A stretch of DNA of 59,888 bases, counting the filler. It is 7 parts of 7 records of this genome, joined end to end, with 100 filler letters (N's around TTAATTAATTAA, not from the genome) between each part and the next. Parts side by side here need not be neighbours in the genome. Positions count along the whole stretch, not along the records: positions 40,830 to 53,515 come from SRR31156797_35150; 6 more parts are not named here. The stretch is one strand, 5' to 3'. Below are positions 37,931 through 54,958 of this stretch, one piece after another; the first letter of the stretch is position 1, and each line of letters opens with the position of its first letter. The notes under the pieces were generated by a model that saw only the letters and a program-made list of their open reading frames with translations, was not told the origin of the DNA and searched no databases. The position numbers and the translations under genes are program-made.

Positions 37931-37960
37931 CAGTAAGGATAAAATTCATTCCCTGCGGAC

Positions 37961-38783: not shown

Positions 38784-38808
38784 GAGGCTCCCCATGGGGA
38801 GCTTTTTT
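38784..38808 (+). terminator. Intrinsic terminator within the pheS leader (attenuator candidate)
   Basis: GCTCCC-catg-GGGAGC followed by TTTTTT, about 40 nt before pheS ATG. Confidence 0.7.
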
Positions 38809-38849
38809 GTGTCCGTCGTGTCAAATGATAGATGGTGATGAGGTAGAGC

Positions 38850-39893
38850 ATGCTGGAAAAGCTGGAAGAGTTACAAAAAGAATTCCGTGAGTCGGTGGAA
38901 ACGTTGGCGGACAAAAATAGTCTGGCCGATTTCAAGGCCGATTATTTGGGAAAAAAAGGTAAATTAAATGACATCCTCAAGGGGATGCGTAATGCTTCTG
39001 CAGATGTGCGGAAGACAGTGGGTGCAAAGGCCAATGAATTTAAGCAGGAGATCCAGGACAGTCTCTCGGTACAACTGCTGAAGATTGAAAAGGCTGCGAT
39101 AAACTCAAGGCTTGAAAAGAGCTGGCAGGATATCAGTTTTACCAACCGCGTTAAGGCCAAGGGACTCACTGCAGCAGGATATCATCCCGTTACCATAATC
39201 CAGCGAGAGATTGAGGATATCTTTATCTCCATGGGATTTGATATTCTGGACGGCCCTCATATCGAGGACGACTTTCACAACTTTGAAGCGCTTAATATCC
39301 CCGATACCCATCCGGCCAGAGACATGCAGGACACCTTCTGGTTTGCCGATATGAAGCATCTCCTGCGGACCCACACCTCTACTATCCAGGTAAGGGGAAT
39401 GGAGGCCAATGATCCTCCGTTTAAATTTATTGGCCCTGGCAAGGTTTTTCGCTGTGAGGCCACTGACGCAAGTCATGAAATGGCGTTCCATCAGCTGGAA
39501 GGGATGATGGTGGGCAAGGATATCTCTGTCGCAAACCTGATCTATTTTATGAAGGCCCTCCTATCTGAAATTTTCCGTCAGGATGTAAATGTTCGGCTGC
39601 GTCCCGGTTTCTTTCCTTTTGTGGAACCTGGATTTGAGCTCGATATCGAATGTCTTATCTGTGCAGGTAAAGGGTGCTCAGTCTGCAAGCAAACCGGTTG
39701 GGTGGAACTGCTTCCCTGCGGTATGATTCATCCAAATGTATTAAGAGCTGGCGGCATTGACCCTGAAAAATGGAACGGCTTTGCTTTTGGACTAGGCCTC
39801 GACCGGCTTGTTATGATGCGTTATCACATAGATGATATTCGCCATCTGCATGGTGCAGATTTACGTTTTGCAGAACAGTTCAAGTCCTATTGA
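38850..39893 (+). CDS. pheS: Phenylalanine-tRNA ligase alpha subunit
   Basis: HPARDMQDTF, LLRTHTS, FHQLEG, FPFVEP, GFAFGLGLDRL. Confidence 0.98.
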   Translation: MLEKLEELQKEFRESVETLADKNSLADFKADYLGKKGKLNDILKGMRNASADVRKTVGAKANEFKQEIQDSLSVQLLKIEKAAINSRLEKSWQDISFTNRVKAKGLTAAGYHPVTIIQREIEDIFISMGFDILDGPHIEDDFHNFEALNIPDTHPARDMQDTFWFADMKHLLRTHTSTIQVRGMEANDPPFKFIGPGKVFRCEATDASHEMAFHQLEGMMVGKDISVANLIYFMKALLSEIFRQDVNVRLRPGFFPFVEPGFELDIECLICAGKGCSVCKQTGWVELLPCGMIHPNVLRAGGIDPEKWNGFAFGLGLDRLVMMRYHIDDIRHLHGADLRFAEQFKSY

Positions 39894-39911
39894 GAGCAGA
39901 GGAGATTATCA

Positions 39912-40729
39912 GTGAATATTAGTATTAATTGGATAAAAGATTATGTGGATCTCCCTGAGAATATCACCCCCGAAGAGTTAGGGGTAAAATTTACGCTGGC
40001 CACCTGCGAAGTGGAAGGTGTGGAGACCACTGGTGCTCACCTGGAGCAAATTAAGGTTGTAGAGATCACAACCATAGAGCCGCATCCTGATGCAGACAAA
40101 TTGCGTCTTGTAAGCTTTGACACCGGCGAGGGGGAAGAACGGGTTGTCTGCGGAGCTCCCAACGTTGAGGTAGGCAAAAAAGTACCCTTTGCTTCGGTAG
40201 GGGTAACACTTCCCGGCGGCTTCACTCTCACTCCTAAAAAAATTCGAGGTGTTGAAAGTGCAGGAATGCTTTGTTCAGAAGTTGAACTGGGCTTAAGTGA
40301 GGATCACAGCGGGCTCATGATCCTGCCGGAAGACGCAGCTGTCGGGCAAACCCTTGCCGAGCATCTCGGAGCTACCAGCGATATACTTTTTGATATCGAT
40401 AATAAGTCCATTACCCACCGTCCTGACCTATGGGGACATTATGGTATGGCCCGGGAATTTTCAGCGGTATTCAATAATCCATTGAAAGATTGTTTTAATC
40501 AGCAATGGCAGGATTCTATTCGTAGTTTGTATACTGATGAGGCTGCACCAGTAACCGTCCAGGTGGATTCTGATTCCTCCTGCCTGGGCTATAAAGGCCT
40601 CAGTATGGATAATATTACCATTAAACCCAGTCCTCAATGGATGCAGGACCGGCTTCGTCTCTGCGGTCTACGACCCATCAGCAATATCGTGGACATTTCC
40701 AACTACGTCATGCTGGAACTGGGAATGCC
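39912..40729 (+). CDS. pheT: Phenylalanine-tRNA ligase beta subunit (3' truncated)
   Basis: HPDADKL, VVCGAPNV, RGVES.GMLCS, G.RPISNIVDISNYVMLELG; GTG start with GGAG SD. Confidence 0.97.
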
Positions 40730-40829
40730 NNNNNNNNNNNNNNNNNNNNNNNNNNNNNNNNNNNNNNNNNNNNTTAATTAATTAANNNNNNNNNNNNNNN
40801 NNNNNNNNNNNNNNNNNNNNNNNNNNNNN
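40730..40829. other. Artificial contig spacer
   Basis: N-run with TTAATTAATTAA. Confidence 0.99.
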
Positions 40830-40904
40830 AAGAGATACAAACACCGGGCTTTCTCGATCCCATATGGTAGAAGTGGTATCAGAACGGTGAACAGTGAGGA
40901 ATAG
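40830..40904 (+). CDS. C-terminal fragment of upstream gene (probably head-tail adaptor)
   Basis: Open frame KRYKHRAFSIPYGRSGIRTVNSEE* ending 2 nt before the next ATG; function from position only. Confidence 0.4.
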   Translation, partial: KRYKHRAFSIPYGRSGIRTVNSEE

Positions 40905-40906
40905 GA

Positions 40907-41260
40907 ATGACCATTCACACCATTGGTCTGATCCATGAGTGCACCATAATTTCAAAGACCCAGGCCGGGACAAACGAATACGGTTCACCTGTATATACAG
41001 AAAACAGCACATCATCTACATGTCGTTTTCTGGTTTCCGGTGATCCTGGCAAGATCGATGAACTTGAAAGCGGGAAGCACAGTGTTTCAGAAGTTTCTGT
41101 GATACTGCCTTCTGATGTTGTTGTGGAAGCAGGTGACACCATAAGCAGCACGGTTCCTGGTTATTTCCATTCTTATGTGGTGTTGTCTGCCATACCGATA
41201 ACCCGGCTATTCAACTCTACTGTTCATCATTACGAATGCAAGCTCAAGGCGGTGGAATAA
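40907..41260 (+). CDS. Head-closure / head-tail joining protein (SPP1 gp16-like)
   Basis: 117 aa beta-rich; T.I....G.NEYG.P, V..GD.I, HHYEC.L; position in neck module. Confidence 0.65.
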   Translation: MTIHTIGLIHECTIISKTQAGTNEYGSPVYTENSTSSTCRFLVSGDPGKIDELESGKHSVSEVSVILPSDVVVEAGDTISSTVPGYFHSYVVLSAIPITRLFNSTVHHYECKLKAVE

Positions 41261-41532
41261 TGGAGATCGATCCTGACACTTATGATAAAATAATCGAGAC
41301 CCACAACGATGTCAAGCACGTTCGTGCAGGCATTGACAAGATGAGCTGTCAGCTCGATGACCACGAGAAGAGAATTCGCGTACTTGAGAAGTGCTCCATC
41401 GAGGACCATGAAGAAAGGATCCGTATGCTGGAAGAGCGACAGAACCGCTGGCTGGGAAGGAATGCTTTTGTCGGACTAATGATCGTTGTGATCCTGCAGC
41501 TGGCAGGGATGATTGTCCAGATAATCTGGTGA
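41260..41532 (+). CDS. Small coiled-coil protein with C-terminal TM helix (XhlA/holin-like)
   Basis: DDHEKRIRVLE / EDHEERIRMLE duplication then hydrophobic tail; TAATG overlap start. Confidence 0.6.
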   Translation: MEIDPDTYDKIIETHNDVKHVRAGIDKMSCQLDDHEKRIRVLEKCSIEDHEERIRMLEERQNRWLGRNAFVGLMIVVILQLAGMIVQIIW

Positions 41533-41536
41533 TGTT

Positions 41537-41968
41537 ATGTTCCAGTTCAAGGTTAAAGGAATGGAAAAGCTGCAGAAGAACCTGCAGGAGCTGGGCAAGG
41601 ACATTACCGACGTCTTGGAAGAAGGTATGCTTGCAGGTGGAGATGTCGTTGTAAGAGCTGCCCAGGAGAATTCCAGAAAAGGTGGTGATGATTTCCCACA
41701 CAGGATTACAGGTAACCTGTTCCGCAACCTTGCAGAGGTCAACCCTGTATCTGTTGAAAGGTCGAACGAACGTTGTGAGGTAATGGTCGGCTCCACTATG
41801 AATTATGCAATGCGTCTTGAGAAGGGGTTCAATGATACCGATTCTCTCGGGCGGAGATACCATCAGCAACCACGACCGTTCCTCAGGCCTGCTCTTGATG
41901 AGAACACCGATGAGATTGAAAAGGCGATCAACCTCAAGCTTCAGCAACTTATCAGGAAGTACAAATGA
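41537..41968 (+). CDS. HK97 gp10-like neck protein
   Basis: VKGMEKL.KNL, TGNL, YA..LE.G, QPRPFLRPALDE. Confidence 0.85.
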   Translation: MFQFKVKGMEKLQKNLQELGKDITDVLEEGMLAGGDVVVRAAQENSRKGGDDFPHRITGNLFRNLAEVNPVSVERSNERCEVMVGSTMNYAMRLEKGFNDTDSLGRRYHQQPRPFLRPALDENTDEIEKAINLKLQQLIRKYK

Positions 41969-42345
41969 CATCTGTTCACGGAGCTCTTCGAAATCTGCTA
42001 TTGCAGAATACTGCAGTGGCTGATCTTGTCAGCAACAGGATCTACCCACTGAGACTACCGCTTGATTGCCAAATGCCTGCGATATCCATCCACAAGGTAA
42101 GCAATCCAATTGATCACGTGAGCGGTTTTGCTACTCCAAGATATCAATTCTCCTGCTGGTCCGGGACATATGCCCAGGTGCAGCAATTGTCAGATGACGT
42201 CATCGAATGTCTAAACCGGTACAAAGGTGTGGCCGATGGAAATCCCATCAAGCAAATAGCGTACCTTGATTCACATGATGCCATAGAGGAAGGCTCTGGT
42301 ATTTTTCACATTCCAATAGATTTCAAGATAATACACATGAGGTAA
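41965..42345 (+). CDS. Tail terminator/completion protein (DUF3168-like)
   Basis: L..LL....V..LV..RIYP..LP....PAI, RYQFSCW..TY. Confidence 0.8.
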   Translation: MTSVHGALRNLLLQNTAVADLVSNRIYPLRLPLDCQMPAISIHKVSNPIDHVSGFATPRYQFSCWSGTYAQVQQLSDDVIECLNRYKGVADGNPIKQIAYLDSHDAIEEGSGIFHIPIDFKIIHMR

Positions 42346-42349
42346 TAAC

Positions 42350-43144
42350 ATGGCACAAACAACCGTACAGAATTCAAATGCCATCCGGTTTGGATCCGGA
42401 AAACTGGAGATTGGCACAACCATAGGATCGCTTGTCAATATCGGCGCCATTCGCAATGCAGTATTCAAGGAGGAATGGGAAGATGTGGAAGTCAAATCCG
42501 ATAATGCCGGTATAGTGAAGGTTGGCATCAAGGAACACGTCGCATACATCGAATGCGATATGATGGAAGTGAACCTGGAGAATCTGAACACCATAAGAGG
42601 TGACCTGGATGCATATGCAACGGTTGCAGGAACTCCTTTATCCGTGACCAACGAAGTGCACTCCCTTGAAGGCACTGACTTCACAAGGTTTGATTACAGA
42701 AATGGAGATAGGTCCGAAGTTTCCAGCATTGTTGTGACTGATGCATCTGATAATGCAGCTGTCCGAAACACCGACTACGTGATAGCAGTTGATAGTGAAG
42801 GCTACACCTGTATTGCAAGGATCTCTGATTCAACTGTCATCACAGACGGCGAAGGCATCAAAGTGGACTATTCCTATACTCCCAGCTCTGCTGCCACTCT
42901 TACAAGCGGTGGTAAGACCTCAATATCAGATCGTGTGGTTCGCATCACCAATACCAATGAGAACGATAAGAACTTCCGCATCACACTCTACAAGGCTACA
43001 GTCAACGAAGGCCAGAACATAGAGTTTCCTGCAGATGACGGAGATGATCCTGCAATGCCACACCTGAAGATGAAGGGTGTGTTGGATGTGAGCAGAACTG
43101 CAGGTGATCAGCTCTATGAAATATACGATGAGCAGGGGATCTGA
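42350..43144 (+). CDS. Major tail tube protein
   Basis: 264 aa, IRFGSGKL.IG start, ITLYKA near C-terminus, position before chaperones. Confidence 0.75.
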   Translation: MAQTTVQNSNAIRFGSGKLEIGTTIGSLVNIGAIRNAVFKEEWEDVEVKSDNAGIVKVGIKEHVAYIECDMMEVNLENLNTIRGDLDAYATVAGTPLSVTNEVHSLEGTDFTRFDYRNGDRSEVSSIVVTDASDNAAVRNTDYVIAVDSEGYTCIARISDSTVITDGEGIKVDYSYTPSSAATLTSGGKTSISDRVVRITNTNENDKNFRITLYKATVNEGQNIEFPADDGDDPAMPHLKMKGVLDVSRTAGDQLYEIYDEQGI

Positions 43145-43146
43145 TC

Positions 43147-43506
43147 ATGAGCTCTGATATCATGAAGGATTTCGACACCATTGCACCCGTAAAACGTGTT
43201 GCAAGGATCGGAGGAGAAGAAGTTGATGTTTCAGTGTTCTCAACACGTGCAACCCTGAAGCTCATTGATATGACCGACTCTCCGGAGAAGATACACGATC
43301 TTGAGAGCGGTAAGAACATTGAGAGTTTTGTTGAAGTGGTTGCAATTGCCTGCCAGCGCTCTAACCCGAAGATAACTGCAGACTGGCTCATGGACAATGT
43401 CGATATGTTCACTCTTGTTGAGTTCTCGAAGTTCGTCCTGGAACCTATCATCCAGAAACTGGAAGAGATCAAGCCCTCGGAGAATACAGAAAAAAACTGT
43501 CAGTGA
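43147..43506 (+). CDS. Tail assembly chaperone (gpG-like)
   Basis: 119 aa between tube and tape measure, ends EKN at a slippery site. Confidence 0.75.
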   Translation: MSSDIMKDFDTIAPVKRVARIGGEEVDVSVFSTRATLKLIDMTDSPEKIHDLESGKNIESFVEVVAIACQRSNPKITADWLMDNVDMFTLVEFSKFVLEPIIQKLEEIKPSENTEKNCQ

Positions 43507-43540
43507 CCATCGGGGACATCTTTGCCCTGATGGGAATCAT
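43491..43540 (+). promoter_or_regulatory. Putative -1 programmed ribosomal frameshift signal
   Basis: In-phase heptamer A AAA AAC (43491-43497) and hairpin CCATCGGGG/CCCTGATGG (43507-43533); -1 frame equals ORF 43503-43769. Confidence 0.7.
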
Positions 43541-43769
43541 GTACTCGTGGGCCACCCCGGACCATCTTCTGGACCATATGTCCACGGGCCAGGTCATGCT
43601 CTACTATGAAAAAGGAATCAGAGCCGTTGAGATGCAGGCGAAGATTTTCTGGGGCGTGCTTGGAGAGGCTTTGAGTGGACAGGAAAAGATGAATGAGGTA
43701 AAAATCGGTGACAGGCCTGACCTGAAACGATTCTACGATCTTTACGGTAGTAAGATAAAAAGAGGTTGA
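43503..43769 (+). CDS. Tail assembly chaperone extension (gpT-like), probably made as a G-T fusion
   Basis: In the -1 frame of the upstream chaperone; W.TPD.L..M...QV pattern; immediately precedes tape measure. Confidence 0.7.
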   Translation: MTIGDIFALMGIMYSWATPDHLLDHMSTGQVMLYYEKGIRAVEMQAKIFWGVLGEALSGQEKMNEVKIGDRPDLKRFYDLYGSKIKRG

Positions 43770-43770
43770 G

Positions 43771-45963
43771 ATGACATCAATCGGTGAACTCATTGTTTCG
43801 ATTATCGGAGATGTAAGTCACATCAAAAAGGCATTTAATGAAGTGAGTTCACAGGCCGGCCAGATGGGAAAGAAGTTCCAGGAAACTGGAAAGCAGATGA
43901 CCTCTGCCGGGAGAACTCTCTCCACATATGTTACTGCTCCTGTTCTGGGACTTGGTGCCGTGGCATTCCATACAGCTTCCTCTTTTGATGATTCCATGAG
44001 AAAGGTCAAAGCCATCTCCCAGGCCACCGGTGAAGAGTTCAAGCAGATGACTGATCTGGCCAGGGAACTTGGCCGAACAACACGTTTCTCTGCCAGTGAA
44101 GCTGCCGAAGGCATGCAGTATCTTGCAATGGCAGGTTTCTCCACCTCTGAGGTTATGGAATCAATCGACGATATGCTCAGCCTTGCAGCTGCCGGAGCCA
44201 TAGATCTTGGTACTGCTGCAGATATCGCATCAAACGTACTTACAGGTTTTAATCTGCAGGCAAGTGAAGCCGGTAGAGTGGCAGATGTCATGGCCAAAGC
44301 ATCTGCTTCATCTAACACCGATATTACTCAACTTGGACAGGCAATGTCCTATGTTGCACCCCTTGCAGCTGCCATGGGAATATCCATGGAGGAAACAGCT
44401 GCAATCATCGGAAAGATGTCAGATGCAGGTGTCCAGGGAAGCCGTGCTGGTACTGCTTTGCGAGGTGCTTTGACAAGGCTTGCAGATCCAACTACTGAAG
44501 CTGCCGGTGTGCTGAAAAAATATCAGCTAACTCTTGCAGACGTGGATCCCACCACACAGTCTTTTACAGATATCATTTCCAGACTTAGCAAAGTCGGTCT
44601 GTCCACTGCAGATGCAATGGCACTATTTGGTCAGGAGGCCGGACCTGGTATGGTTGCACTGTTATCTGTGGGTTCCACTGCCATTCATGAGCAAACAAAA
44701 TTACTCGAGAACTCCGCTGGTGCTGCAGCTAAAATGGCAGAGGAGATGGAAGGAGGGCCAGGGGGAGCTATACGTGAACTTAAGTCTGCACTTCAAGATG
44801 TGATGATAACTTTCGGAGATGTGGTTGCTGAAGGGCTTATGCCACTGGTCAGTGCCTTCATCGAGATCCTCAACGTTGTATCTGGTATTCCAAAACCAAT
44901 ACTCAAGGTAATTGTAGCAGTAGCTGCCATAGCTGCAGCCATTGGTCCGGTACTGATCGTAGCTGGTTCTGTAATCGGTGCCATCGGAACAATAACAACC
45001 TTCCTCAGCAGTGCAGGACTGGCTGGAGCTTTGACCAGTGTAGCTGCAATTATCACGGGTCCTGTGGGAATAGCGATTGCTGCTCTTGTAGTAGGTGCAA
45101 TTCTAATATGGAAGAGCTGGGACAAGGTATCTCCTGTTGTCATGAGAACACTGGAGAACATTCAAACAGCTGCTGAACCACTCATTTCTCTGCTGAATAA
45201 TTTTGTATCCAATGTCATGAACAAGATCAGTGGATGGTGGGTAGAAAACGGAGACACAATCACTTCCGTTGTAGCTGGTATTGTGTCCATCCTTGGAATA
45301 TTGGTTTCATACATTGCAGACTATGTTGTTGGTAGTATTATGATATGGTTACCTCTGGTCCTGAAGACATTTGAGTACGTGCTTGATCAGATACTCAATC
45401 ACATACTTTTCTTCTCACAGATCCTTACAGGTGACTGGGAAGGTGCCTTGCAGACATTGCAGACCATCTCCCAGAGCAGAATTCATTTCCTGTATTCAAT
45501 AATAGCGGATGCAATTGATCCAATTTTAAATATATTCTCATCTGCTGGCAACAGTTTCTATCGTTCAGGAAAAGGCCTGATACAGAACTTCATCAACGGA
45601 ATAAAGTCGATGGTGAGCCCTCTTACATCCACGGTCTCGGATGTATTTACAGGCATTTCCAGATATCTCCCTCACAGTCCTGCTGAGGTCGGTCCATTGT
45701 CTGAACTTCCAAACTGGGATGCATTCTTTGTATCCCCTCTCAAGAAGTCAGTTGGAAAGATGGATAACATGCTGGCTACTGGCCTCAACAATGCAGCTGG
45801 TACTTTTTCTACAAGCACGAATACCACCAATAATTCATATGCAGGTGACGAGTTCGTGATCCAGAATGTAAATCTCTCAGCTGATTATCCGTTCGAGAAG
45901 TTTGTCCGTGACCTGGAGAAATACAACCGGCAAAAGCGTGTGCAAAGAGGTCATGGCATATGA
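43771..45963 (+). CDS. Tail tape measure protein (TP901-like core)
   Basis: LGRTTRFSASEAAEGMQYLAMAG, G.QGS.AGT.LR, LFGQEA, RYLPHSPA..GPLS. Confidence 0.95.
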   Translation: MTSIGELIVSIIGDVSHIKKAFNEVSSQAGQMGKKFQETGKQMTSAGRTLSTYVTAPVLGLGAVAFHTASSFDDSMRKVKAISQATGEEFKQMTDLARELGRTTRFSASEAAEGMQYLAMAGFSTSEVMESIDDMLSLAAAGAIDLGTAADIASNVLTGFNLQASEAGRVADVMAKASASSNTDITQLGQAMSYVAPLAAAMGISMEETAAIIGKMSDAGVQGSRAGTALRGALTRLADPTTEAAGVLKKYQLTLADVDPTTQSFTDIISRLSKVGLSTADAMALFGQEAGPGMVALLSVGSTAIHEQTKLLENSAGAAAKMAEEMEGGPGGAIRELKSALQDVMITFGDVVAEGLMPLVSAFIEILNVVSGIPKPILKVIVAVAAIAAAIGPVLIVAGSVIGAIGTITTFLSSAGLAGALTSVAAIITGPVGIAIAALVVGAILIWKSWDKVSPVVMRTLENIQTAAEPLISLLNNFVSNVMNKISGWWVENGDTITSVVAGIVSILGILVSYIADYVVGSIMIWLPLVLKTFEYVLDQILNHILFFSQILTGDWEGALQTLQTISQSRIHFLYSIIADAIDPILNIFSSAGNSFYRSGKGLIQNFINGIKSMVSPLTSTVSDVFTGISRYLPHSPAEVGPLSELPNWDAFFVSPLKKSVGKMDNMLATGLNNAAGTFSTSTNTTNNSYAGDEFVIQNVNLSADYPFEKFVRDLEKYNRQKRVQRGHGI

Positions 45964-46292
45964 TCGTTACTTTTGACGGTTCACCGGTATCTGTGATCAA
46001 GTATATGGAAATCTCAGTGGATTCTCCTTTCAAGGAGACCACCCTGCTGTCCGGGAAAACATACATTCAGGCTTCTCCTGAGCAGAAGTTTGCCAGGACC
46101 TTTGAGTGCTACACTGAGGTCCTTTCCGAGATATCCACCCTGCTGAGTAAACTTGGTACTTCAGGTACACTGGTGATTGATTCTGATTCGTACACCAGCT
46201 GCTACATTGTTCCTCCGCTCAAGTATAAGGAACTGATCATGGGCAGTGGAAAGTATACCTACACAATCAGTTTTGCGAGGCATACGGCATAA
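45960..46292 (+). CDS. Putative distal tail (Dit-like) protein
   Basis: 110 aa, ATGA-coupled to tape measure; function from position. Confidence 0.5.
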   Translation: MIVTFDGSPVSVIKYMEISVDSPFKETTLLSGKTYIQASPEQKFARTFECYTEVLSEISTLLSKLGTSGTLVIDSDSYTSCYIVPPLKYKELIMGSGKYTYTISFARHTA

Positions 46293-47737
46293 TGGTAGAT
46301 TTGAACACATATCCTCTGGAATCCCTGAAGGTTTCAAAAACGATCAGGGATGCTTTCTGGCAACTGGAATCACATATCGTAGATGTATCTATCCCGGTCA
46401 ACTATTCAGATGTGCTCATTGAGCTGGAAGATTATTCTGGAAACAACAAAGCAGTGTTTTATGGAATTACTGCCCCCGATGAATCATATGATCTTAAACT
46501 GGTTGAAGAAGCGGTCGATATCTATGCCTATGACTTACGATGGTTCCTGTCTCGCCAGTTTGTACCTGATGCTCAACTGGTACTGGCAATCACAGACGAT
46601 ATCATCACTTACATCGAGGATCTGTTGGGTGGAAGCAACTGGGTTATTGTAACAGGCGTGGAACCTTACAAAATACGTTCTCCTGATCCTGCCATTACAA
46701 AAAAGGAATTCGTATTCAATCCAGATACTTCAAAACTGGATGCTATAGCAGAGATTGCAGAGTACTACAACTGTATTTTCGAGGTTAAATGGCGAAATGC
46801 AGGAACCGAACAATCGCCTAATTGGATTACCTGTGCTTATTTCATCAGGTCTGAAGAGATCGACGATGATACAGATGGTCTGGATTTGCCATCGCCTGCA
46901 GTGCTGGAGAAAACGGACAATGATATTCTTGAGCTCACGGTGGCCAACTCCTCCGATGACAAGTACAATAGGATCATAGCCAAAGGGAGTGATTCCTCCG
47001 GTAATTGGTATACAGGAATAGTGGAAAGTTCCAATGTAACAAATGGAACAGCAAAGCCCAGAGAGTACATGGAATATCCTTCTCCATACGTTGTCAGCCA
47101 GGGTACTGCAGATCAGCGTGCATCTGAGCTTTACGCCCTGTTCAATTTTCCTGTTAAGAGAATCTCTGCAACACTCACCAAAAGACATGACCTTGAACTG
47201 TATCAGCTTGTCAAGTTCGATGGCTGGACCGAATATGCGAATGCACTCTACACGGTGGGACAGACTGGGGTGAACTGGGTCAGGATAGTGGAAATATCCC
47301 ATGTAAAAACTGCCACATCCTCTGAAGTACGGATTGTGTGCGTTCCGGACAGGGACCTAAGTCACAGCCGGCTGAAAGGCTACTCGGTATCACCAAACAG
47401 CGTGGACATTACAGAATCTATAGTTATGGATGTACTGGCATCGCAAGCATTAGCGGAGATTGGTGTAGCTACTCTTCCAGAATCCGAGTCGTCGGCATCT
47501 GTTGCATTGAACAGGGGAGGTACGATCACTGCGAAGGTGCTTGGTTCTGATGAGAGCATTGTTCTTCCCATAAACAATGAGCGTGTTATTGTATCCGGAG
47601 GAGGAGGTGGTTTCAGTAACCCTGCTGAAGAGGACTTAGACATGAAAGAGTTCAAAGTGAAAAGTACAACAGAGGACCTGGTTTTTCAGGTACCTCAAGT
47701 TAAAAAGATAATATTCCAACGGGAGCCAACTGCATGA
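46292..47737 (+). CDS. Putative baseplate hub / tail-tip protein
   Basis: 481 aa; LDAI.EIAE, YNRIIAKG, A..RA.EL patterns typical of hub proteins; position. Confidence 0.55.
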   Translation: MVDLNTYPLESLKVSKTIRDAFWQLESHIVDVSIPVNYSDVLIELEDYSGNNKAVFYGITAPDESYDLKLVEEAVDIYAYDLRWFLSRQFVPDAQLVLAITDDIITYIEDLLGGSNWVIVTGVEPYKIRSPDPAITKKEFVFNPDTSKLDAIAEIAEYYNCIFEVKWRNAGTEQSPNWITCAYFIRSEEIDDDTDGLDLPSPAVLEKTDNDILELTVANSSDDKYNRIIAKGSDSSGNWYTGIVESSNVTNGTAKPREYMEYPSPYVVSQGTADQRASELYALFNFPVKRISATLTKRHDLELYQLVKFDGWTEYANALYTVGQTGVNWVRIVEISHVKTATSSEVRIVCVPDRDLSHSRLKGYSVSPNSVDITESIVMDVLASQALAEIGVATLPESESSASVALNRGGTITAKVLGSDESIVLPINNERVIVSGGGGGFSNPAEEDLDMKEFKVKSTTEDLVFQVPQVKKIIFQREPTA

Positions 47738-48390
47738 CAGTAGGCAAGATAACATCCTCCCAGCAAGACCTTGTCTATGTGAAAGTAAGACCTGAAAATG
47801 GAACTTTCCTGGAAACAAGGATAGGTGGATTAGAGGCGGTTTTAAGTATATCAGATTCTGCAGGCCAGGAATTCACAGCAGAGCATTACTTTGGCAGGAT
47901 CAAAATAGCTGTCAAGGATGCTGGAAACAAATCGCTGATAGCAAGGCTTTATGATTCTCACCTTAAGGAAAACAAACTGCATGAAACGATATTCAAGAAC
48001 GTGGGTCAGGACAAAGTGTTGCACTGGGCTTTTGATCCATTGCCTGCAGGCACGTATTACTGGGAAGTAGAGGCTTGGGCCGGAGTGAGTGGCTTTGAGC
48101 TTTACGTATTTTCAGGTTCCACACTCAGCACAGCATACATGGATGGTTCTTTGTTACCTGGAAAAGATTTCAAGAGCAAGGTGATGTATTGCGAGGATAT
48201 TGAAGTAGAGAGAGCTGTTGCAGTCGTAGGGGACAGTGTAGATTCAGATGTTGCAACTGTAAGTTCCGGGACATCATTTGGATCTGTCATGGTTGGTACA
48301 GTTGAGAAGAACATATCCAGGGAGCTTGATGATCTGGGAAACGGTGGTCAGATACTGACAGGGTCATGGTTCCTTGAGATGGATAATTAA
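47734..48390 (+). CDS. Hypothetical virion/tail protein
   Basis: ATGA-coupled 218-aa beta-rich ORF. Confidence 0.55.
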   Translation: MTVGKITSSQQDLVYVKVRPENGTFLETRIGGLEAVLSISDSAGQEFTAEHYFGRIKIAVKDAGNKSLIARLYDSHLKENKLHETIFKNVGQDKVLHWAFDPLPAGTYYWEVEAWAGVSGFELYVFSGSTLSTAYMDGSLLPGKDFKSKVMYCEDIEVERAVAVVGDSVDSDVATVSSGTSFGSVMVGTVEKNISRELDDLGNGGQILTGSWFLEMDN

Positions 48391-48408
48391 AAACAGGGGG
48401 AAACAGAT

Positions 48409-49323
48409 ATGGGATTTACAAGCGGTGGAAAAACATTACCGGATATCATAGATGAAATAGCAGCAGCCTTGATAGCAAGTTCTGCAAATTGGTCAGATGG
48501 TGACACTACATGGGACACTACAGAAACATCCAATGATACGGACACCAACAGGCGTTGCCTGAAATATACCGGGGATGCAGCTGACATCTGGCTTGCACTT
48601 GAGAGCATAAACGATGACAGTCACTATTACGGGGCCAGTGTAAGTGCTAAAGGCTTGAGAATCACGTTTTCCAGTTCATGGGATAGTGTAAACCACACCT
48701 ACGGAACAACTAATAGCCAGACATTTATTGGATTTCAGGGAGATGATTCATCCCCTCAGGCAGATTTGAATTCCATGATACTGACCTACTATTTATGGGT
48801 AGATTCATCCGGCTTTGCACTGATGGCAAAACCCGAGCCAATTTCTGTGGATGACAGGCAATCTTCGTTCATTACAGTAGTAGAACATATGGGTACAAAG
48901 GAATACAGCGATGGATTAACCAATTTCTATTGTTTTACACAGAGAAATGTAGGTGTTTCGTGGACAGATTCCAACGATCATGATTACTTTGAGTTCATGC
49001 CAATGATAAGGCCTTTCGCATACGAAACCCGTACCATTGGCAAGGGGATACAGTTCTGGTACCATGATTATAACAATCGCTACGCTCTCAAAAGTACCGG
49101 AAATGGGAAGGTGTATTTTGTAAAACCAGTCATCTGTAACTCAATTGACAATTTCACTCCGATATACCAGAGCGAGCTGTTCTTTAAGTTCTCAGAAGAT
49201 GCAGGACTTGTTGATGGGGATGTGATAGCAATCGATGGGGAAACCACGAAATATATCTGCAAGACCCTTGATTCACCGGACAGCACAGCCAGGTTGAACT
49301 TTGCTATAAAGTACGTGGCATAA
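48409..49323 (+). CDS. Hypothetical virion/tail protein
   Basis: 304-aa ORF in the tail operon, purine-rich SD. Confidence 0.55.
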   Translation: MGFTSGGKTLPDIIDEIAAALIASSANWSDGDTTWDTTETSNDTDTNRRCLKYTGDAADIWLALESINDDSHYYGASVSAKGLRITFSSSWDSVNHTYGTTNSQTFIGFQGDDSSPQADLNSMILTYYLWVDSSGFALMAKPEPISVDDRQSSFITVVEHMGTKEYSDGLTNFYCFTQRNVGVSWTDSNDHDYFEFMPMIRPFAYETRTIGKGIQFWYHDYNNRYALKSTGNGKVYFVKPVICNSIDNFTPIYQSELFFKFSEDAGLVDGDVIAIDGETTKYICKTLDSPDSTARLNFAIKYVA

Positions 49324-49340
49324 TAGTAGGAAGATGGTCG

Positions 49341-51194
49341 ATGGCATTTGATCCGGTAGTATTTGGAACGTATGTGGTAGGCACAGGGTTCACAGATGGC
49401 AGTTCAATATCAGAGGGAGGGTTCAGGTTATTCATAGTTCCTTCTGAGAATATAGGTGATGCACCTCTAGATGTGACAGTAACATACGTGGACCAGTTCG
49501 GAAACCCTGCAGAACAGACAACAGTAAGTACATCAGTTGAAGCTAACACCACTGCAGGCACGCATATGCAGGTATCCCTGAACACGGGAGATACAGGTAT
49601 AAGGGACGTTACAGCTGTAAACGTCGCTGGTGGGACCACTGGAGATACCTTCACACTGGAAAGCTGGCATGAAGGAATTGGCAAGACGGTAACATCGCTT
49701 GAAAGTGGGCAAAGGGAAAGTAACCAGCAAATACTGGATATTCGGGATGTACATCCAAACAGAATAAAGGAGCAGGGTGACCCATTCATAATAGATTGCA
49801 TTCATGAGAACGTGGTATATGATCCAATAACAAAGAGCTTCATATTACCAATTGAGGAAATAGAACCTAACTATTCTACCGAAATTGACATCAGTGATGG
49901 TCTGATGCCTGCAAATATAATCCTGGATGGCACTAACAAGTATTTCAGGGTGGACCTGCCTGCAGAAACGAGCTTTGTAAATGTTGACAGTGAATATACC
50001 AACCAGGAATTTGAATATGATACAAATGCATTCTACAAGATCACTTTTGATTATGATGTAAAATTGAATAGCAGCTATTTCATAGTGGAACTGCTGGATG
50101 ATCAAGATAACATCAAATGGAGCAAGAATGCTACGACTGCGTCCACAGGACAAATTGTCAATATGGTATCAACCAATTTCAGATTCAGGGTACGTTGTAA
50201 AGCAGATTATGATTCTCCTTTAATTTACTCTGATTATTGCCAAATAAGCAATATCAAGCTGGAACGATACAAGGATACAGGAATAGTCCAACAGAGCTGG
50301 CATAAATATTTTGACAGCATGGTATCGCTGGAAACTGTAAACGTTGATTGGACATCCGGTACAGCAGGAACTGCAGTAAAGGCACAGCTGAACATCTCGG
50401 ACGATAACTCAAGCTGGACCGGCTGGAATGGACCAGCTGGAACATCCGCTTCCTACTACACAGGTAACTGGCAGATAATAGACAAAGACGGAAAGATTGG
50501 AAAATACTGGAAAGCCAAGATATGGCTGGAGTCGGATGGAAGGTACACACCGACCTTCAACTACATGGAATACTACATGTACATTAGAATGAAAGCCATC
50601 GAAAAGGAATTCCTGGACACTGACCCTGCAACTGCGGGTGTTCCAGTGGCTTTTCATCCCATTTATAGCCCTCTTCAGGGTCAGAAGACTGGTTCTCAGG
50701 CATTACCGATTTCAGGTCGAGATTTTGTGAATCGGCTGATCGACATAATTGCAACGCTGGAACCTACGGATAACCAGCAACTACCCACATCAGGTCGTAT
50801 ACTAACAGAGCGAGAGATTATTCTGTTCAGATCCTGGGCAGAATCAGTGGTAGGCGTGGTTATGTCCGGATATGCAAAAGACCAGGAAGATGCTGTTATT
50901 CAGAATGCAGTTAAGGTGATATTGGAGAGCACATACACTTTCGGTAAAGATACAATGGGATCCGTTAATCCAGAGACAGGTTTCTTCCAGATATTTGTCA
51001 AAGATGCGAAATACGATAAGAGGCACCTAATAGTTGAAGTCTCTGGAAGAAGTGTTAATATATCCCTGGCAGAGTATGGGGATCCTGCAATACTGGACGC
51101 TACTTCTGGCCAGATCCCTAATCAGGATCTTCATTTCTGGAAATCCAGTATTTGCAGGTCAGTTGCTCATGTTGATTCACTCGTCACTTATTGA
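49341..51194 (+). CDS. Putative tail fibre / receptor-binding protein
   Basis: 617 aa, beta-rich, S.DN.SW.GW and Y.K.KI.L.S...TP motifs; last gene of the tail operon. Confidence 0.5.
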   Translation: MAFDPVVFGTYVVGTGFTDGSSISEGGFRLFIVPSENIGDAPLDVTVTYVDQFGNPAEQTTVSTSVEANTTAGTHMQVSLNTGDTGIRDVTAVNVAGGTTGDTFTLESWHEGIGKTVTSLESGQRESNQQILDIRDVHPNRIKEQGDPFIIDCIHENVVYDPITKSFILPIEEIEPNYSTEIDISDGLMPANIILDGTNKYFRVDLPAETSFVNVDSEYTNQEFEYDTNAFYKITFDYDVKLNSSYFIVELLDDQDNIKWSKNATTASTGQIVNMVSTNFRFRVRCKADYDSPLIYSDYCQISNIKLERYKDTGIVQQSWHKYFDSMVSLETVNVDWTSGTAGTAVKAQLNISDDNSSWTGWNGPAGTSASYYTGNWQIIDKDGKIGKYWKAKIWLESDGRYTPTFNYMEYYMYIRMKAIEKEFLDTDPATAGVPVAFHPIYSPLQGQKTGSQALPISGRDFVNRLIDIIATLEPTDNQQLPTSGRILTEREIILFRSWAESVVGVVMSGYAKDQEDAVIQNAVKVILESTYTFGKDTMGSVNPETGFFQIFVKDAKYDKRHLIVEVSGRSVNISLAEYGDPAILDATSGQIPNQDLHFWKSSICRSVAHVDSLVTY

Positions 51195-52376
51195 GGTGGC
51201 GTTGCTATCAGACAAAACCTCCTTTAATTTCCCTAAGTATCCCTGCAACTCTTGGACATCCTTTGGATCTTTTGCTCCAATTTCAAGAAGCAGTTGCATA
51301 CCCAGCTGTTGCATGTCATCGACATTAGTTGCTGCAGATGCATTAAGAGCCATTCCACAACTACTGCAGAAATCTGCGGCTGGTCCGTTCATGATTTTGC
51401 AACGGGGACATTTAATTGGGCTTAGTTGTGGTTTTGTATCTTCTTCTTTTGCTAAGCCATGCATTTTCAACAGCGCGTTGTCCACTTGTTTTCCAGACAT
51501 GTGGATATATACGGATGGCATGTTAGATCCATGAACCCAGCCCAAGTGTTCTTCCATCTGCGCCTGTGTCAGGTACTGTGCAAGTTCCGTGCTTCTGCTG
51601 TGCCTGAAAAGGTGATTATGCACTCTTTTTTTGATTCCTGCCTCTTTTGCGAGTTTTCGAACAAGATATCTAAAGGCTTGATATTGGAGCTGATTTCCAT
51701 TATTTGTGGTTCCGTGGCCTATCCACAAATATGCATCTGGGTTGCTCCTATGAGGATGGAGGTCTAACCATGCAGATAGATATGGAACACTTGAGATTAG
51801 CCGAACTCTTCTCATTCCAGTCTTCCCATTAACTGTGACAACTGCACCGTACTGATCATGTACCACATGTTTGATTTTCATGTTCCCCATTTCTGAGATC
51901 CTGCACCCTGAATCATATAGCACAGCAACGATTGCTCTGTCTCGTGGATTGCCAGCTTCATTTATCATCATTTTAATTTCTTCTTCTGTGAGCAGTTCCT
52001 CTGGGATTTTTGTTTGATTCTTTTTGATCCGAACTGAAATCCAGTCCACTGTCTCGGGTTTATCAAGCCACCTGTATAGTCTGCGTATCGCGGACTTGTA
52101 ATCGAGTTTTGACCAGTGACTAAGGTCGGAGCGCTCAATCTTTGCTATCACTTTTTTGATATCAGCTTCTGTGGCAGCATTTATATCCTTACCCAGCCAT
52201 TTCGCAAACATATTATAATGGCTTAAGTATTTGATCACGCGTGCCTTTGAAATTCCGTCCAGAAAGAGTTGACTTTCATATTCGAAGATTGTATCTTTGC
52301 TGCTCTGGCTGTATTCAGCTTCTTGGATACGGCGCTCTGCAGAATCCAAATATTTGTCAAAATCATATATTCCCAT
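51177..52376 (-). CDS. Tyrosine integrase with C-terminal zinc ribbon
   Basis: DSGCRISE (R), GKTG.R (K), HLFRHS, LGW, SVYIH (Y), CPRC...CSSC; AGGTG SD before ATG 52376. Confidence 0.93.
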   Translation of the reverse strand: MGIYDFDKYLDSAERRIQEAEYSQSSKDTIFEYESQLFLDGISKARVIKYLSHYNMFAKWLGKDINAATEADIKKVIAKIERSDLSHWSKLDYKSAIRRLYRWLDKPETVDWISVRIKKNQTKIPEELLTEEEIKMMINEAGNPRDRAIVAVLYDSGCRISEMGNMKIKHVVHDQYGAVVTVNGKTGMRRVRLISSVPYLSAWLDLHPHRSNPDAYLWIGHGTTNNGNQLQYQAFRYLVRKLAKEAGIKKRVHNHLFRHSRSTELAQYLTQAQMEEHLGWVHGSNMPSVYIHMSGKQVDNALLKMHGLAKEEDTKPQLSPIKCPRCKIMNGPAADFCSSCGMALNASAATNVDDMQQLGMQLLLEIGAKDPKDVQELQGYLGKLKEVLSDSNATSISDE

Positions 52377-52462
52377 TAATAACACCTACTATTTTTCCTA
52401 ATACTATCCTTTGCCAAGCTTGGTGAAAGTGTTGTAGGCATTATAACCGGTCCCGTATTCCG

Positions 52463-52882
52463 GTGGTTGGTATGGTGGCCCTTGCGGCACTTGTAGCTAT
52501 AATTCCTCCACCCACGAAAAACATGTCAGTAACGATTGACACTGCAGGAGAGCAGGGAGCAGGTATGAATCCTGGCAATACTGTTATTGTAGATTCTACA
52601 ACAGCAGCCTCTCCTTTTACGATAGATGTGGCAATATCTGTTGTAGATCCTGATGGTTACCCTGTCAGAAGTGCAAATGTTGTATTAAGAGGCCTTGGCG
52701 GTGTTGCCACAGGTGTCACAAATGATGCCGGACAGTGTACCCTCACAACAGTCACCCCTGGTGGCGCACAGGTCAACCTTGGTTCCAACCAGAATGAAGG
52801 GGCAATGGACCTGTCCATTTCAGCAAATGGATTCTACGACTTTGAAAAGACAGATGCTGTAATGGTAGTCAGGACTTCATAA
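52463..52882 (+). pseudogene. 5'-truncated archaeal class III signal-peptide (pilin-like) gene with carboxypeptidase-regulatory-like domain
   Basis: Begins mid-hydrophobic helix (VVGMVALAALVAII); upstream in-frame codons unrelated, TGA at 52424; paralogous to the next gene. Confidence 0.6.
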
Positions 52883-52913
52883 TCCTGACTTCTTTTCTAT
52901 TTTGCAGGTTTAC

Positions 52914-53345
52914 ATGTTATCAGATGATTCTGCATCAGTAGGCCTTCCTATAAGGATTGTAGTGCTTACGATCATTGGTATGATAGGCATTTATGCCATA
53001 CTCTCGGCTGTTATGAGCACGCCTTTTCTTCCCGGTTCAATGTTTGCAGCTTCTAATTCCAGCAGCTTCAATATATCCGGAAGCGTGGATGATTCTCCTG
53101 ATCTCGTAGTTAGTGTCTTTGACAATGACGGAAGGTCCGTAAGTGGTGCCAATGTCATAGTATGGGGTCCGCAAAGGGAAAAAGTAGTAGGTGGAGTAAC
53201 AGACAGCGCTGGAGAATTTCATTACAGGCTCGTGGGTATTTCCCTGCCACAGGGAAAAACGGAAGGTTACCTGTCAGTAAAAGTAATGGAAGAAGGCTAT
53301 CTGGATTATACCAATGATTTCCTTGTAAAAGTAAAAAGAGTGTGA
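52914..53345 (+). CDS. Archaeal class III signal-peptide (pilin-like) protein
   Basis: MLSDDSA/SVGLPIRIVVLTIIGMIG; V.D.DG..V.GANV....G.TD..G. Confidence 0.75.
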   Translation: MLSDDSASVGLPIRIVVLTIIGMIGIYAILSAVMSTPFLPGSMFAASNSSSFNISGSVDDSPDLVVSVFDNDGRSVSGANVIVWGPQREKVVGGVTDSAGEFHYRLVGISLPQGKTEGYLSVKVMEEGYLDYTNDFLVKVKRV

Positions 53346-53387
53346 GCATCTCTTTTTAGATGCTCATATGTTAGTTTTCTTTTTTAT
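53343..53387 (+). terminator. Hairpin plus T-rich terminator
   Basis: TGAGCATCT-cttttt-AGATGCTCA followed by T tracts. Confidence 0.6.
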
Positions 53388-53515
53388 TTAGATTTGTTCG
53401 GTTCTGTAGAAACCCTGCCTGTTGCAACTTTGAACTTAGCAATTTTTAATAATTGCATTATTTCAATAGTCTTCAGATTGGTCGCAAAGGAACGTGCCGC
53501 CTGCGGCGGGTGGTC

Positions 53516-53615
53516 NNNNNNNNNNNNNNNNNNNNNNNNNNNNNNNNNNNNNNNNNNNNTTAATTAATTAANNNNNNNNNNNNNNNNNNNNNNNNNNNNN
53601 NNNNNNNNNNNNNNN
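53516..53615. other. Artificial contig spacer
   Basis: N-run with TTAATTAATTAA. Confidence 0.99.
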
Positions 53616-54544
53616 TTCAGTTTTTCCAAAGGCATCCAGTCCGGATCGACACACATCCTGACCGGGCCCCTTTGCTTCAGATAGGACTGTTCTTCACGGG
53701 AAAACAGCATTCCATATTTGTCCTGGATTTCACCCAGCCACTTTTCTTTCAGTTTTTGCATCTCAGGGGGCGTGATGGAGGCATACGCCTTTTCAAACAA
53801 CCTGTTCAGGACAGGCCAGTCTTTCCGGACAGAAATATAAAGGGACGGTGCGACACGATCCATTTCAGGGTTTATAAAAGTTCCGGATATTTTCAGGTTA
53901 TCCAGCAGATATTTACGGATCCGATATCTTGCCACGGCCCCGATTTCGATGGTTGCGTCCGCTTTACCGGAACAGACGGATTCAAACGCTTCATGCATAT
54001 CGCGTACAGCCAGAACAGTCACTTTTGGATGATGTTCTTTGAAATACGTTTCATAGTACCAGCCCTTTGGAACGGCGATAATCTTTCCATTGAGCTGTTC
54101 GCTTTCATCGATATCGGGGGCATCCTTATGGACAACGAACCTATCCTTACTGGTGTAAAAAGAAAGTGAAAAAAAACCGTAGGTCTCTCTTTCGCGGGTT
54201 TTATATAACGTATGGATGACATCGATTTCCCGTTCCCGGAACATCTGCATGAGTTCATCCCATGTGTAGCCGTTAACAAATTCGACCCCAATGCCAATAC
54301 GATCCGCGATCATTTGAACCAGATCGATACTTAATCCCTGGGGACGGTCACCGATGGCAAAATCAAAGGGCGGCCAGTCAGTTTCATTGGAAACCCGGAT
54401 AACCGGATGTTCCGCAAGAAATTTTTCCTCTTCCTCTGTTAATTCAGGTATTGGGCCTTCGGGCAGGACCGCAAAGGATGAAAACGGCATCAGCAATATC
54501 AAAACGGTGATCACCCATCCGGAAATCAGGCTGGTTTTTTTCAT
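53616..54544 (-). CDS. Tandem periplasmic-binding (BvgS/EvgS-like) sensor protein, 3' truncated
   Basis: LT.EE..FL..HP.IRV..E.DWPPFDF, second domain CVDPDWMPLE; ATG 54544. Confidence 0.85.
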
Positions 54545-54955: not shown

Positions 54956-54958
54956 TGG

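Follow-up and report, generated by a model that had tools for sequence, protein, structure and literature searches.

Positions 40830-53515 of the 59,888-nucleotide stretch of DNA analysed here (the window) are a single contig of 12,686 bp, which is very probably the right arm of an integrated siphovirus-type provirus of the methanogen Methanolobus. The fuller proposition, that this copy is moreover complete and belongs to a temperate lineage that is still active, seems to us probable, with considerably less assurance. The contig carries 13 co-oriented open reading frames (ORFs) on the + strand, followed by a convergent tyrosine integrase gene, and provirus DNA ends at 52461. Position 40830, the first base after an artificial linker, falls within a gene and marks no biological start; because the contig starts mid-gene, head and replication genes are absent from it. 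A sequence-only reading of the same DNA had proposed an intact-looking provirus at 40830-52462. Its right limit lies within one base of the junction, whereas its left limit is a contig start inside a gene, and the impression of intactness has to be given up for the window, which holds the right arm only, with no capsid, portal, terminase or replication genes.

Tail genes and their order

Comparison of the ORFs with the Pfam, PHROG and NCBIfam/TIGR profile libraries named the central genes of the module. An HK97 gp10-like neck or tail-completion protein of 143 amino acids (aa) (41537-41968, +; phrog_5, E 6.6e-21; PF04883, E 3e-6; TIGR01725, 33.6 bits against a cut-off of 30.8) is followed by a tail terminator of 126 aa (41965-42345, +; phrog_347, E 1.3e-10; PF11367, 24.1 bits, just under the cut-off of 24.5), a major tail (tube) protein of 264 aa (42350-43144, +; phrog_807, E 2.4e-9; NF052337 tail_tube, 43.3 bits, below its cut-off of 60) and, beyond the chaperone genes, a tape measure protein of 730 aa (43771-45963, +; PF10145, E 9e-49; phrog_1533, E 3.8e-127; TIGR01760, 245.5 bits) in which three hydrophobic 20-mers begin at residues 282, 372 and 415. 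A search of solved-structure (PDB) sequences gave no meaningful match to the tube protein. None of the 13 ORFs matched a sheath family in the profile searches, and the tube gene comes directly after the terminator. The presence of tube, tape measure and terminator genes and the lack of a sheath gene point to a siphovirus-type particle. Tail length follows the tape measure at about 0.15 nm per residue, and a tail of roughly 110 nm is a reasonable inference from the 730-aa protein.

Between the tube and tape measure genes lie a G-like tail assembly chaperone of 119 aa (43147-43506, +), recognized by that position and with no family match, and its -1 frame extension, the T-like part (43422-43769, with the ORF at 43503-43769, +), recognized by its open frame and register and 52-85% identical in 18 of 19 related loci. 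A slippery heptamer, A_AAA_AAC (43491-43497, +), stands in zero frame relative to the G-like ORF, whose stop follows 6 nucleotides (nt) later, and is kept in 18 of the 19 loci, the nineteenth of which does not cover the site, even where the surrounding identity is about 70%. We therefore have, upstream of the tape measure, what appears to be a chaperone pair with a conserved signal for -1 programmed frameshifting (G to G-T), from which a frameshifted product is predicted. The order neck, terminator, tube, chaperones, tape measure and integrase, with no sheath, is that of the sequence-only reading, and the family matches and the -1 frame chaperones bear it out.

At its left end, the contig opens with the last 24 codons and the stop of a gene in the head-tail connector position (40830-40904, +); its frame 0, KRYKHRAFSIPYGRSGIRTVNSEE followed by the stop, corresponds to the C-terminal end of a 124-aa protein, the product of L002:8181-8555, which is complete in relatives. 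The next gene (40907-41260, +) encodes a 117-aa protein of the head-tail connector (adaptor/head-closure) class, with matches to phrog_793 'head-tail adaptor' (E 3.4e-6) and, below cut-off, to Pfam Minor_capsid_1 (E 0.0022) and with none among PDB sequences. These matches suggest a connector protein, whereas the narrower head-closure label previously given to this gene is tentative, the matches being weak. Orf98 (41236-41532, +) encodes a small coiled-coil protein with a C-terminal hydrophobic segment; it is 58-99% identical in 18 of the 19 related loci, and its only match is phrog_5225, of unknown function (E 1.2e-5). A membrane-type protein is an odd thing to find between connector and neck genes; lysis genes were not recognized in the contig.

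The tight coupling of the genes described from the letters is confirmed, with 4-nt overlaps at 41965/41968, 43503/43506, 45960/45963 and 47734/47737 and a 1-nt overlap at 46292. The GGTGA-type Shine-Dalgarno motifs fared less well: the exact word GGTGA precedes only 2 of the 13 provirus genes, although 8 of them are preceded by a Shine-Dalgarno-like word at least 4 nt long.

The five genes that follow the tape measure received no name from any of the profile libraries. Orf110 (45960-46292, +) is a small protein that we place by position as a candidate distal-tail (Dit/gpM) protein; it has no family match and no PDB sequence match and is 55-94% identical in 15 of the 19 loci. For the 481-aa product of orf481 (46292-47737, +), an AlphaFold2 model built from 16 sequences has a moderate mean predicted local distance difference test (pLDDT) score of 64.6. 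It shows a hub fold in residues about 1-355, and the C-terminal third is not modeled, residues 357-481 scoring below 50 and being disordered. Foldseek returned 70 PDB matches at E<=0.001, led by the phiCD508 needle (2.4e-13). The matches also include the Mu gp44 hub, Tal of phages 80alpha and p2, T4 gp27 and VgrG, and the tail of Haloferax tailed virus 1 (9h4p_BD) matches at E 5.2e-11. The model thus predicts a baseplate hub of the gp27/Mu gp44/Tal type. Only 18 relatives of orf481 were found in an index of 5.8 billion proteins, and among the closest nine, those that are named are all from Methanolobus.

Two further tail-tip proteins, orf218 (47734-48390, +) and orf304 (48409-49323, +), have no family match and are 49-89% and 51-98% identical in relatives, respectively. 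The Atlas matches of orf218, at 0.81 or below, and the nearest Atlas clusters of orf304, viral (Uroviricota) proteins at 0.97 with low recognition, are to be taken as leads only. The last gene before the integrase, orf617 (49341-51194, +), is the most divergent of the module, with 38-93% identity across relatives. It has 90 relatives among 1.84 billion representatives, which align separately to its N-terminal (1-120), its middle or its C-terminal (about 490-617) part. Its model (mean pLDDT, 74.7) consists of four beta-sandwich blocks, whose weak fold matches (template-modeling score of 0.2 or less) are to lectin- or carbohydrate-binding-module-like, phage tail and host-specificity proteins. 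From its position, its divergence and these fold matches, we infer that orf617 is a modular tail fiber and probable receptor-binding protein.

Host and relatives

That this DNA belongs to a temperate tailed virus of a Methanosarcinales methanogen had been proposed from protein style, and the database comparisons now support it. The best matches of the integrase are an ENA protein (92%), M. halotolerans (89%) and Methanolobus sp. ZRKC3 (74%), followed by many Methanosarcinaceae (792 matches at E<=0.001 from 4575 candidates). For the tube protein, all 11 confirmed genome loci, at 78-95% identity, carry the title Methanolobus; M. profundi, M. halotolerans and M. vulcani are among them, as are two copies within a single 3.37-Mb contig of a metagenome-assembled genome (G001). 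The protein also occurs in 8 IMG/VR contigs at 79-93%, and of 177 genomes from the host family, one per species, 18 have a relative at 47-95%. At the nucleotide level, the contig is 87% identical to copy A of G001 (L002) over 40830-53146 and 89% identical to copy B (L001) up to 51650, and related sequence of 90-95% identity is found in salt-marsh and marine-sediment metagenomes (runs X2 and X3). An exact look-up of 10 window proteins found none in the protein collection searched. Taken together, the likenesses point to Methanolobus as the host.

The surroundings of the contig could suggest another origin, namely, a bacterial prophage fragment or an assembly chimera binned with bacterial contigs. 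The window is made of seven separate contigs (1-6755, 6856-20416, 20517-26777, 26878-32654, 32755-40729, 40830-53515 and 53616-59888), and neighboring pieces encode bacterial-type functions (Ada/AraC, M23 peptidase, AcrB, MacB/FtsX, and PheS/PheT with a tRNA_bind N-domain); in addition, the best phage matches of the tape measure are Bacillus and Paenibacillus phages, at 35% or less. However, a linker scan (12 N-runs) showed that the pieces are joined by six N44-TTAATTAATTAA-N44 linkers (6756-6855, 20417-20516, 26778-26877, 32655-32754, 40730-40829 and 53516-53615), so that the pieces beside 40830-53515 are not its flanks. The G+C content of the pieces ranges from about 33% to 61%; they apparently come from several organisms, and adjacency across the linkers is without meaning. 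Moreover, the named close relatives of the integrase, tube and hub proteins are all from Methanolobus or a related methanogen, the 87% identity runs on into Methanolobus chromosomal genes, the contig ends in a Methanolobus-specific repeat, and a second assembly contains the same join with 0 differences. A bacterial or chimeric origin is, on this evidence, scarcely credible. As to the archaeal flanking genes of the sequence-only reading, the right flank (52463-53345) does consist of conserved Methanolobus genes, while the left one is an artificial join to a bacterial-type contig.

Integrase, attachment site and split host gene

The integrase gene (51177-52385, -) encodes a 402-aa tyrosine integrase with a C-terminal zinc ribbon (PF00589, E 1e-20; phrog_1, E 1.7e-27). 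Its motifs are the R in CRISE at 161, HLFRHSR at 258, the Y in VYIH at 292, CPRC at 326 and CSSC at 340. A catalytic R..HxxR..Y integrase thus lies at the end of the element, and the gene, which reaches to 52385, adjoins the junction at 52461. The window and copy A of G001 share provirus DNA up to ...GTATTCC and then switch to a 14-bp core, GGTGGTTGGTATGG, at 52462-52475 (+), the right attachment site (attR) and provirus/host junction. In an empty-site genome (L024), host sequence stands on both sides of the same core, and a second copy of the core, GGTGGTTGGAATGG, is found at the left attachment site (attL) of G001, after the displaced 5' part of the host gene, with attL and attR 56.7 kb apart. 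Equivalent attL and attR sequences lie on two contigs of M. halotolerans. Altogether, the same provirus type occupies this site in two other Methanolobus genomes, and the site is empty in three (G004, G005 and G006). The attL of the window's own copy is outside the window; with the attL/attR pairs taken from relatives, the direct-repeat cores at both ends and the empty site in related genomes indicate integration at this core.

The host gene interrupted at the junction is represented by its 3' part (139 codons; 52463-52882, +) and encodes a DUF7382/immunoglobulin (Ig)-like surface protein, of which an uninterrupted 170-aa homolog is found at L024:4753-5265 (DUF7382, 30.7 bits against a cut-off of 27.4). 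It is followed by a gene for a second small membrane-anchored Ig-like protein of 147 aa (52902-53345, +; CarboxypepD_reg, E 1.6e-4, below cut-off), which is conserved beside the first in G002, G004, G005 and G006. The ORFs at 52463-53345 have 73-74% nucleotide identity in M. vulcani, M. profundi, G005 and G006, on provirus-free contigs or positions, and because they recur at provirus-free loci in Methanolobus genomes, we regard them as host genes. In M. vulcani, the order at the site is hisH, a short spacer, the 170-aa DUF7382 gene and a 146-aa paralog, and in the window and copy A the first ~30 codons of the 170-aa gene are replaced by provirus DNA. A comparison by eye of the displaced 5' segment between M. 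vulcani and G001 showed that 6 of 7 substitutions are synonymous, which argues that this segment is coding and hence that integration splits the DUF7382 gene.

The N-terminus of the host protein (..DDRAIELPINIVVMLVVGMV..) suggested a type IV pilin-like protein, which the families did not confirm: no pilin or archaellin N-terminal family was matched by the split gene (Pfam at E<=1, NCBIfam at E<=10), only DUF7382 and sub-threshold Ig-like domains. A tRNA target was also considered, and no tRNA is present in the window. A search for exact repeats of at least 13 nt and a short BLAST comparison of the right end with the first 7-9 kb of the two G001 copies gave nothing useful; the early attachment-site searches on copy A were empty because its left end is much further out, and that end was located after the empty site had been read. 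In M. profundi, a different element of ~14.7 kb (L025:4807-5330; G002:C16:402821-417504), which opens with an integrase-like frame (DNA read by eye), occupies almost the same point of the DUF7382 gene. The 5' end of this gene is an integration hot spot.

Beyond the host genes, the contig ends in a dispersed Methanolobus repeat of about 115 bp (53399-53515), which has many separate matches of 72-97% in G002 and G005 (22 and 24 matches overall in the two genomes, a few falling elsewhere in the query) and is carried by six other contigs of run X1. The end of the contig at 53515 is probably explained by this repeat. The repeat itself, possibly MITE- or REP-like, ends in a G+C-rich palindrome-like stretch, and an Rfam scan of the contig, repeat included, gave no match at E<=1.

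The whole element as seen in relatives

The window holds 11.6 kb of an element that measures roughly 35-40 kb in relatives and whose head, packaging and replication genes are known from relatives only. Copy B of G001 spans about 34.9 kb between the vicinity of an ArsR-type gene and tRNA-Ser(tga). It starts with small early genes, an AAA ATPase, a DnaG-primase/D5-helicase, an intact ParB-N6/N4 methylase and an intact 441-aa TerL with Terminase_6N and 6C, and continues, after 6.9 kb of host-like cargo, with a portal-position gene, MuF, an MNT/HepT pair, a scaffold-position gene, an HK97/encapsulin-like capsid protein and then the module seen in the window. Across the relatives, the capsid protein (288 aa) is Linocin_M18/HK97-like and MuF is present, and the 408-aa portal-position protein has a weak match to Portal_Mu (E 0.19). 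In the head module, MuF and the scaffold-position gene enclose the MNT/HepT nucleotidyltransferase-RNase toxin-antitoxin pair (L002:4696-5374), which has homologs in L001, L003, L004, L009 and L010.

These relatives bear on whether the tail genes might be a domesticated, tail-derived device, tailocin-like or gene-transfer-agent-like, kept for Methanolobus's own use. The tail genes are 78-95% identical at the protein level across several Methanolobus species and under purifying selection, and the window shows tail genes only, as such a device would have it. But in the relatives a full virus set (primase-helicase, methylase, TerL, portal, MuF and HK97-fold capsid) stands in one block with attL and attR, the element is patchily present (18 of 177 genomes), its insertion sites differ (DUF7382 gene versus tRNA-Ser) and exist in empty form, head-tail connector genes are present, and the fiber genes diversify as in infectious viruses. 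The hallmarks of tailocins and gene transfer agents, namely, no replication or integration genes of their own, a fixed locus and vertical inheritance, were not found. Domestication is thus very improbable, and we retain a temperate provirus as the explanation of the module.

The two G001 copies differ in their insertion sites within one genome, copy A lying in the DUF7382 gene and copy B beside tRNA-Ser(tga); no second copy of the tRNA-Ser region was found near copy B, so its left junction is not placed. Their integrases are 60% identical overall, with a near-identical C-terminal ~75 aa, a divergence that fits their different targets. The nucleotide similarity between the window and copy B breaks off within the integrase gene (window 51177-51650 versus L001:18829-19302): its product is near-identical over the last ~75 aa, which comprise the zinc ribbon and tail, and about 55% identical over the rest. 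This pattern suggests a recombination breakpoint in the integrase gene that may have swapped target specificity between the DUF7382 gene and tRNA-Ser.

Between TerL and the portal-position gene, both copies carry a cargo block of 6.6-8 kb at the same place (L020:14760-20000 with L001:1-2440 in copy B; L022:1-6680 with L002:1-1735 in copy A). In copy B it encodes fasciclin, an AMP-binding enzyme, a ferric-reductase-like protein and a 2-thiouracil desulfurase, and in copy A FIST, ZnuA, an iron-dependent repressor and two CobW proteins. In the IMG/VR relatives L018 and L019, no more than about 0.85-1 kb separates TerL from the portal-position gene. Near attL, copy A has in addition a ~17.5-kb insert (L027:3086-13400) with radical SAM, a 990-aa unknown, PLD-like, a 644-aa unknown and split DEAD/Helicase_C genes. 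This insert, absent from the M. halotolerans copy, looks like a defense island in the left arm of the provirus.

State of this copy

Selection, assembly and read depth bear on whether the copy in the window is functional. In comparisons of the window with four relatives, the ratio of nonsynonymous to synonymous divergence (dN/dS) is 0.02-0.27 in 36 of 37 computable gene comparisons, the exception being orf98 versus L001 (0.60, at near-zero divergence), and dS is about 0.3-0.8 to the closer relatives; ratios this low argue that the genes have been kept working. Measured against L001, none of the 13 provirus ORFs is interrupted or shortened, and the same is true of the integrase. In run X1, which is possibly the window's own source and to that extent not independent, one 22,621-bp Logan contig holds the whole of 40830-53515 at 9936-22621 with 0 differences and runs on, unbroken, for 9.9 kb more upstream. 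Since the assembly of this probable source run continues 9.9 kb to the left and all the genes are open and under purifying selection, we propose that this copy is probably complete. The depth of the X1 contig, 43.9, compared with 40.1-45.1 for five other contigs with the host repeat, fits a single integrated copy per genome; contig depth is blind to excised forms, and no joints were reported. In addition, the conserved frameshift site, the low dN/dS and the differing integration sites point to a live temperate lineage.

Several observations weigh against this interpretation. The window lacks head, packaging, replication, lysis and repressor genes, so that completeness is concluded here indirectly, and no lysis gene was recognized anywhere in the module. 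A DNA search for clustered regularly interspaced short palindromic repeat (CRISPR) spacers in the 177 family genomes, with 2 candidates scored per genome, gave no spacer-like short match at about 95% or more, the best matches being 29-31 nt at 90-93% and 43 nt at 84-86%. The case for orf617 as a receptor-binding protein is drawn from position, divergence and weak fold matches. Lastly, some relatives are damaged: copy A of G001 has a TerL frameshifted into two reading frames, a split methylase and a shortened hub gene (386 aa), which may reflect real decay or assembly errors, and G083 carries a scrambled remnant of the tail module (G083:C1:1535849-1538520), in which provirus parts 1-1120, 1352-2124 and 7854-8642 adjoin one another and the tube gene has become part of a fused frame of 416 aa.

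These decayed relatives, the restriction of the window to the right arm and the equality of element and host depth in run X1 would all agree with a cryptic prophage that is no longer inducible, a defective element of which the tail arm and the integrase persist. An uninduced intact lysogen, however, also gives equal depth, and the open, full-length genes, the low dN/dS with the frameshift signal kept, and the unbroken upstream continuation of the Logan contig speak against a defective copy. We therefore consider the cryptic state unlikely, while granting it real weight, and favor an intact temperate provirus.

Our working model for such a provirus is as follows. The integrase would recombine the phage attachment site (attP) with the 14-bp core in the 5' coding part of the DUF7382 gene next to hisH, thereby splitting the host gene. 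On induction, the element would be excised, after which the primase-helicase, methylase, TerL, portal, MuF and HK97-fold capsid, genes seen in the relatives, would act. The tail would be built on the 730-aa tape measure, to about 110 nm, with the G and frameshifted G-T chaperones, and orf617 at the tail tip may bind a surface glycan or an S-layer component. A more daring version, to which we give little credence, would hold that the lineage amounts to a group of family rank among the tailed viruses of the Methanosarcinales, without an isolate and still active, and that its integrase deliberately splits a cell-surface gene, so that lysogeny remodels the surface and could exclude superinfection.

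Relation to known viruses

The closest catalogued relatives are proviruses of M. profundi Mob M (NZ_FOUJ01000009.1, pvOTU117; L003) and M. vulcani B1d (NZ_VIAQ01000015.1, pvOTU110; L008), which belong to the same lineage, with 85-86% nucleotide identity over window 40830-48050. Their gene order is the same and their tube protein is 91% identical, whereas the tail-tip genes from orf218 on are 45-67% identical or not found, and the M. vulcani copy lies outside the DUF7382 site, which is empty there. Both regions are entered, without description, in a supplementary table of predicted proviruses, where they are 'Low-quality' members of VC_644_0 (PMC9723712); the same source gives 140 provirus regions predicted in 301 genomes of methanogens and anaerobic methanotrophic archaea (PMC9723712). 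The virus had been called probably uncharacterized, which is fair, and it is not near-identical to a described virus, although its relatives are catalogued (pvOTU117 and pvOTU110 in VC_644_0, and the 8 IMG/VR contigs).

Among isolates, the closest is Methanoculleus virus Blf4 (Pungoviridae, Flagovirus limi; MZ171369), a siphovirus isolate that infects Methanoculleus bourgensis. Blf4 and a same-length record that matches identically (L4768) are the only relatives of the tube protein among 50,697 phage records (26.8%, E 3e-18). Five of the 13 provirus proteins of the window match Blf4 collinearly: the gp10-like protein (52%, residues 72-131), the terminator (32%, residues 4-126), the tube (27%), a chaperone (30%, at the same gene position) and the tape measure (28-34%); gene sizes in the neck-tail block are also close, including a 495-aa gene in the hub position. 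On the other hand, Blf4 has no detectable sequence match to the hub, fibers, connector, capsid, portal or TerL, no integrase is found among its 63 annotated features, and its host is of another order, the Methanomicrobiales. When 13 head and replication proteins of copy A were compared with Blf4, only the primase (25%) and a methylase fragment were convincing; the HepT match (E 0.004, opposite strand) looks like chance, and TerL of copy B found nothing in Blf4. Membership in the Pungoviridae was considered, and the genome-wide gene content shared with Blf4 that it implies was not found, as judged without a formal proteome tree. By sequence comparison, the resemblance to Blf4 appears to be a shared tail core and not family membership. 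Neither bacterial best matches nor near-identity to a described virus, the two findings that would have told against the sequence-only reading, was observed: the best named integrase matches are from Methanolobus, the two genes to the right are conserved in Methanolobus chromosomes, a megablast of the contig against the 50,697 phage records gave no match, and the Blf4 tube is only 26.8% identical.

More distantly, siphophages of the lambda, HK97 and SPP1 types share the order connector, gp10-like protein, terminator, tube, G/G-T with a -1 frameshift, tape measure, distal protein, hub and fibers, with no sheath. Identity with them is confined to family-level profiles, the host here is archaeal, and the distal protein has only 110 aa. 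A -1 frameshift has been reported in haloarchaeal siphoviruses (PMC8211752). Of the haloarchaeal tailed viruses (HVTV-1, HCTV-1/2/5 and Haloferax tailed virus 1), the last is also alike in the hub fold (9h4p_BD). The group differs in host class and habitat, and no sequence-level relation to it was detected by the megablast and tube searches of the phage records.

For the Methanosarcinales, the list of isolated methanogen viruses in the introduction of PMC9796341 gives only the spherical MetSV, and no isolated tailed virus of this order was found in the literature examined. 'Methanolobus' occurs 0 times in the 2025 ICTV summary, and our literature searches on Methanolobus proviruses and tailed viruses returned nothing on these elements, which a 2023 compendium of methanogen viruses may cover. 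The lineage is thus catalogued but never isolated or studied, and the contig adds the exact host, the attachment site and the anatomy of the tail tip. As an object it is ordinary in kind, a temperate siphovirus-type provirus, and the main interest of the lineage lies outside the window, in the cargo block, the defense-like insert and the integrase swap. Together with its relatives, it offers a precise host, an exact attachment core, a defined tail-tip set with a variable fiber gene and cultured strains with near relatives, which would turn a catalogue entry into an inducible, imageable system in which host range could be studied, the host being a methylotrophic methanogen from marine and saline sediments. 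On the more daring version given above, induction of the close relatives in cultured M. vulcani B1d, M. profundi Mob M and M. halotolerans SY-01 could provide the order with its first tailed virus-host system.

Neighboring contigs in the window

Judged by domain content, the neighboring pieces appear to be of bacterial type. The left neighbor encodes a Cache/PAS histidine kinase, Ada-AlkA, two Ogt proteins, PheS and PheT, the last cut at 40729, and the right neighbor encodes SBP_bac_3, AzlC, AraC, an M23 peptidase and AcrB. Other pieces have genes for an amylase with DUF4961/DUF5018 domains and for MacB/FtsX permeases. The pheT gene (39912-40729; tRNA_bind and B3_4) ends after about 271 of ~800 profile residues, a truncation that is due to the end of its contig and not to the provirus. 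In the same piece, at 37403-38302, two tandem Ogt-type methyltransferase genes (175 aa and 113 aa) follow the Ada-AlkA fusion gene.

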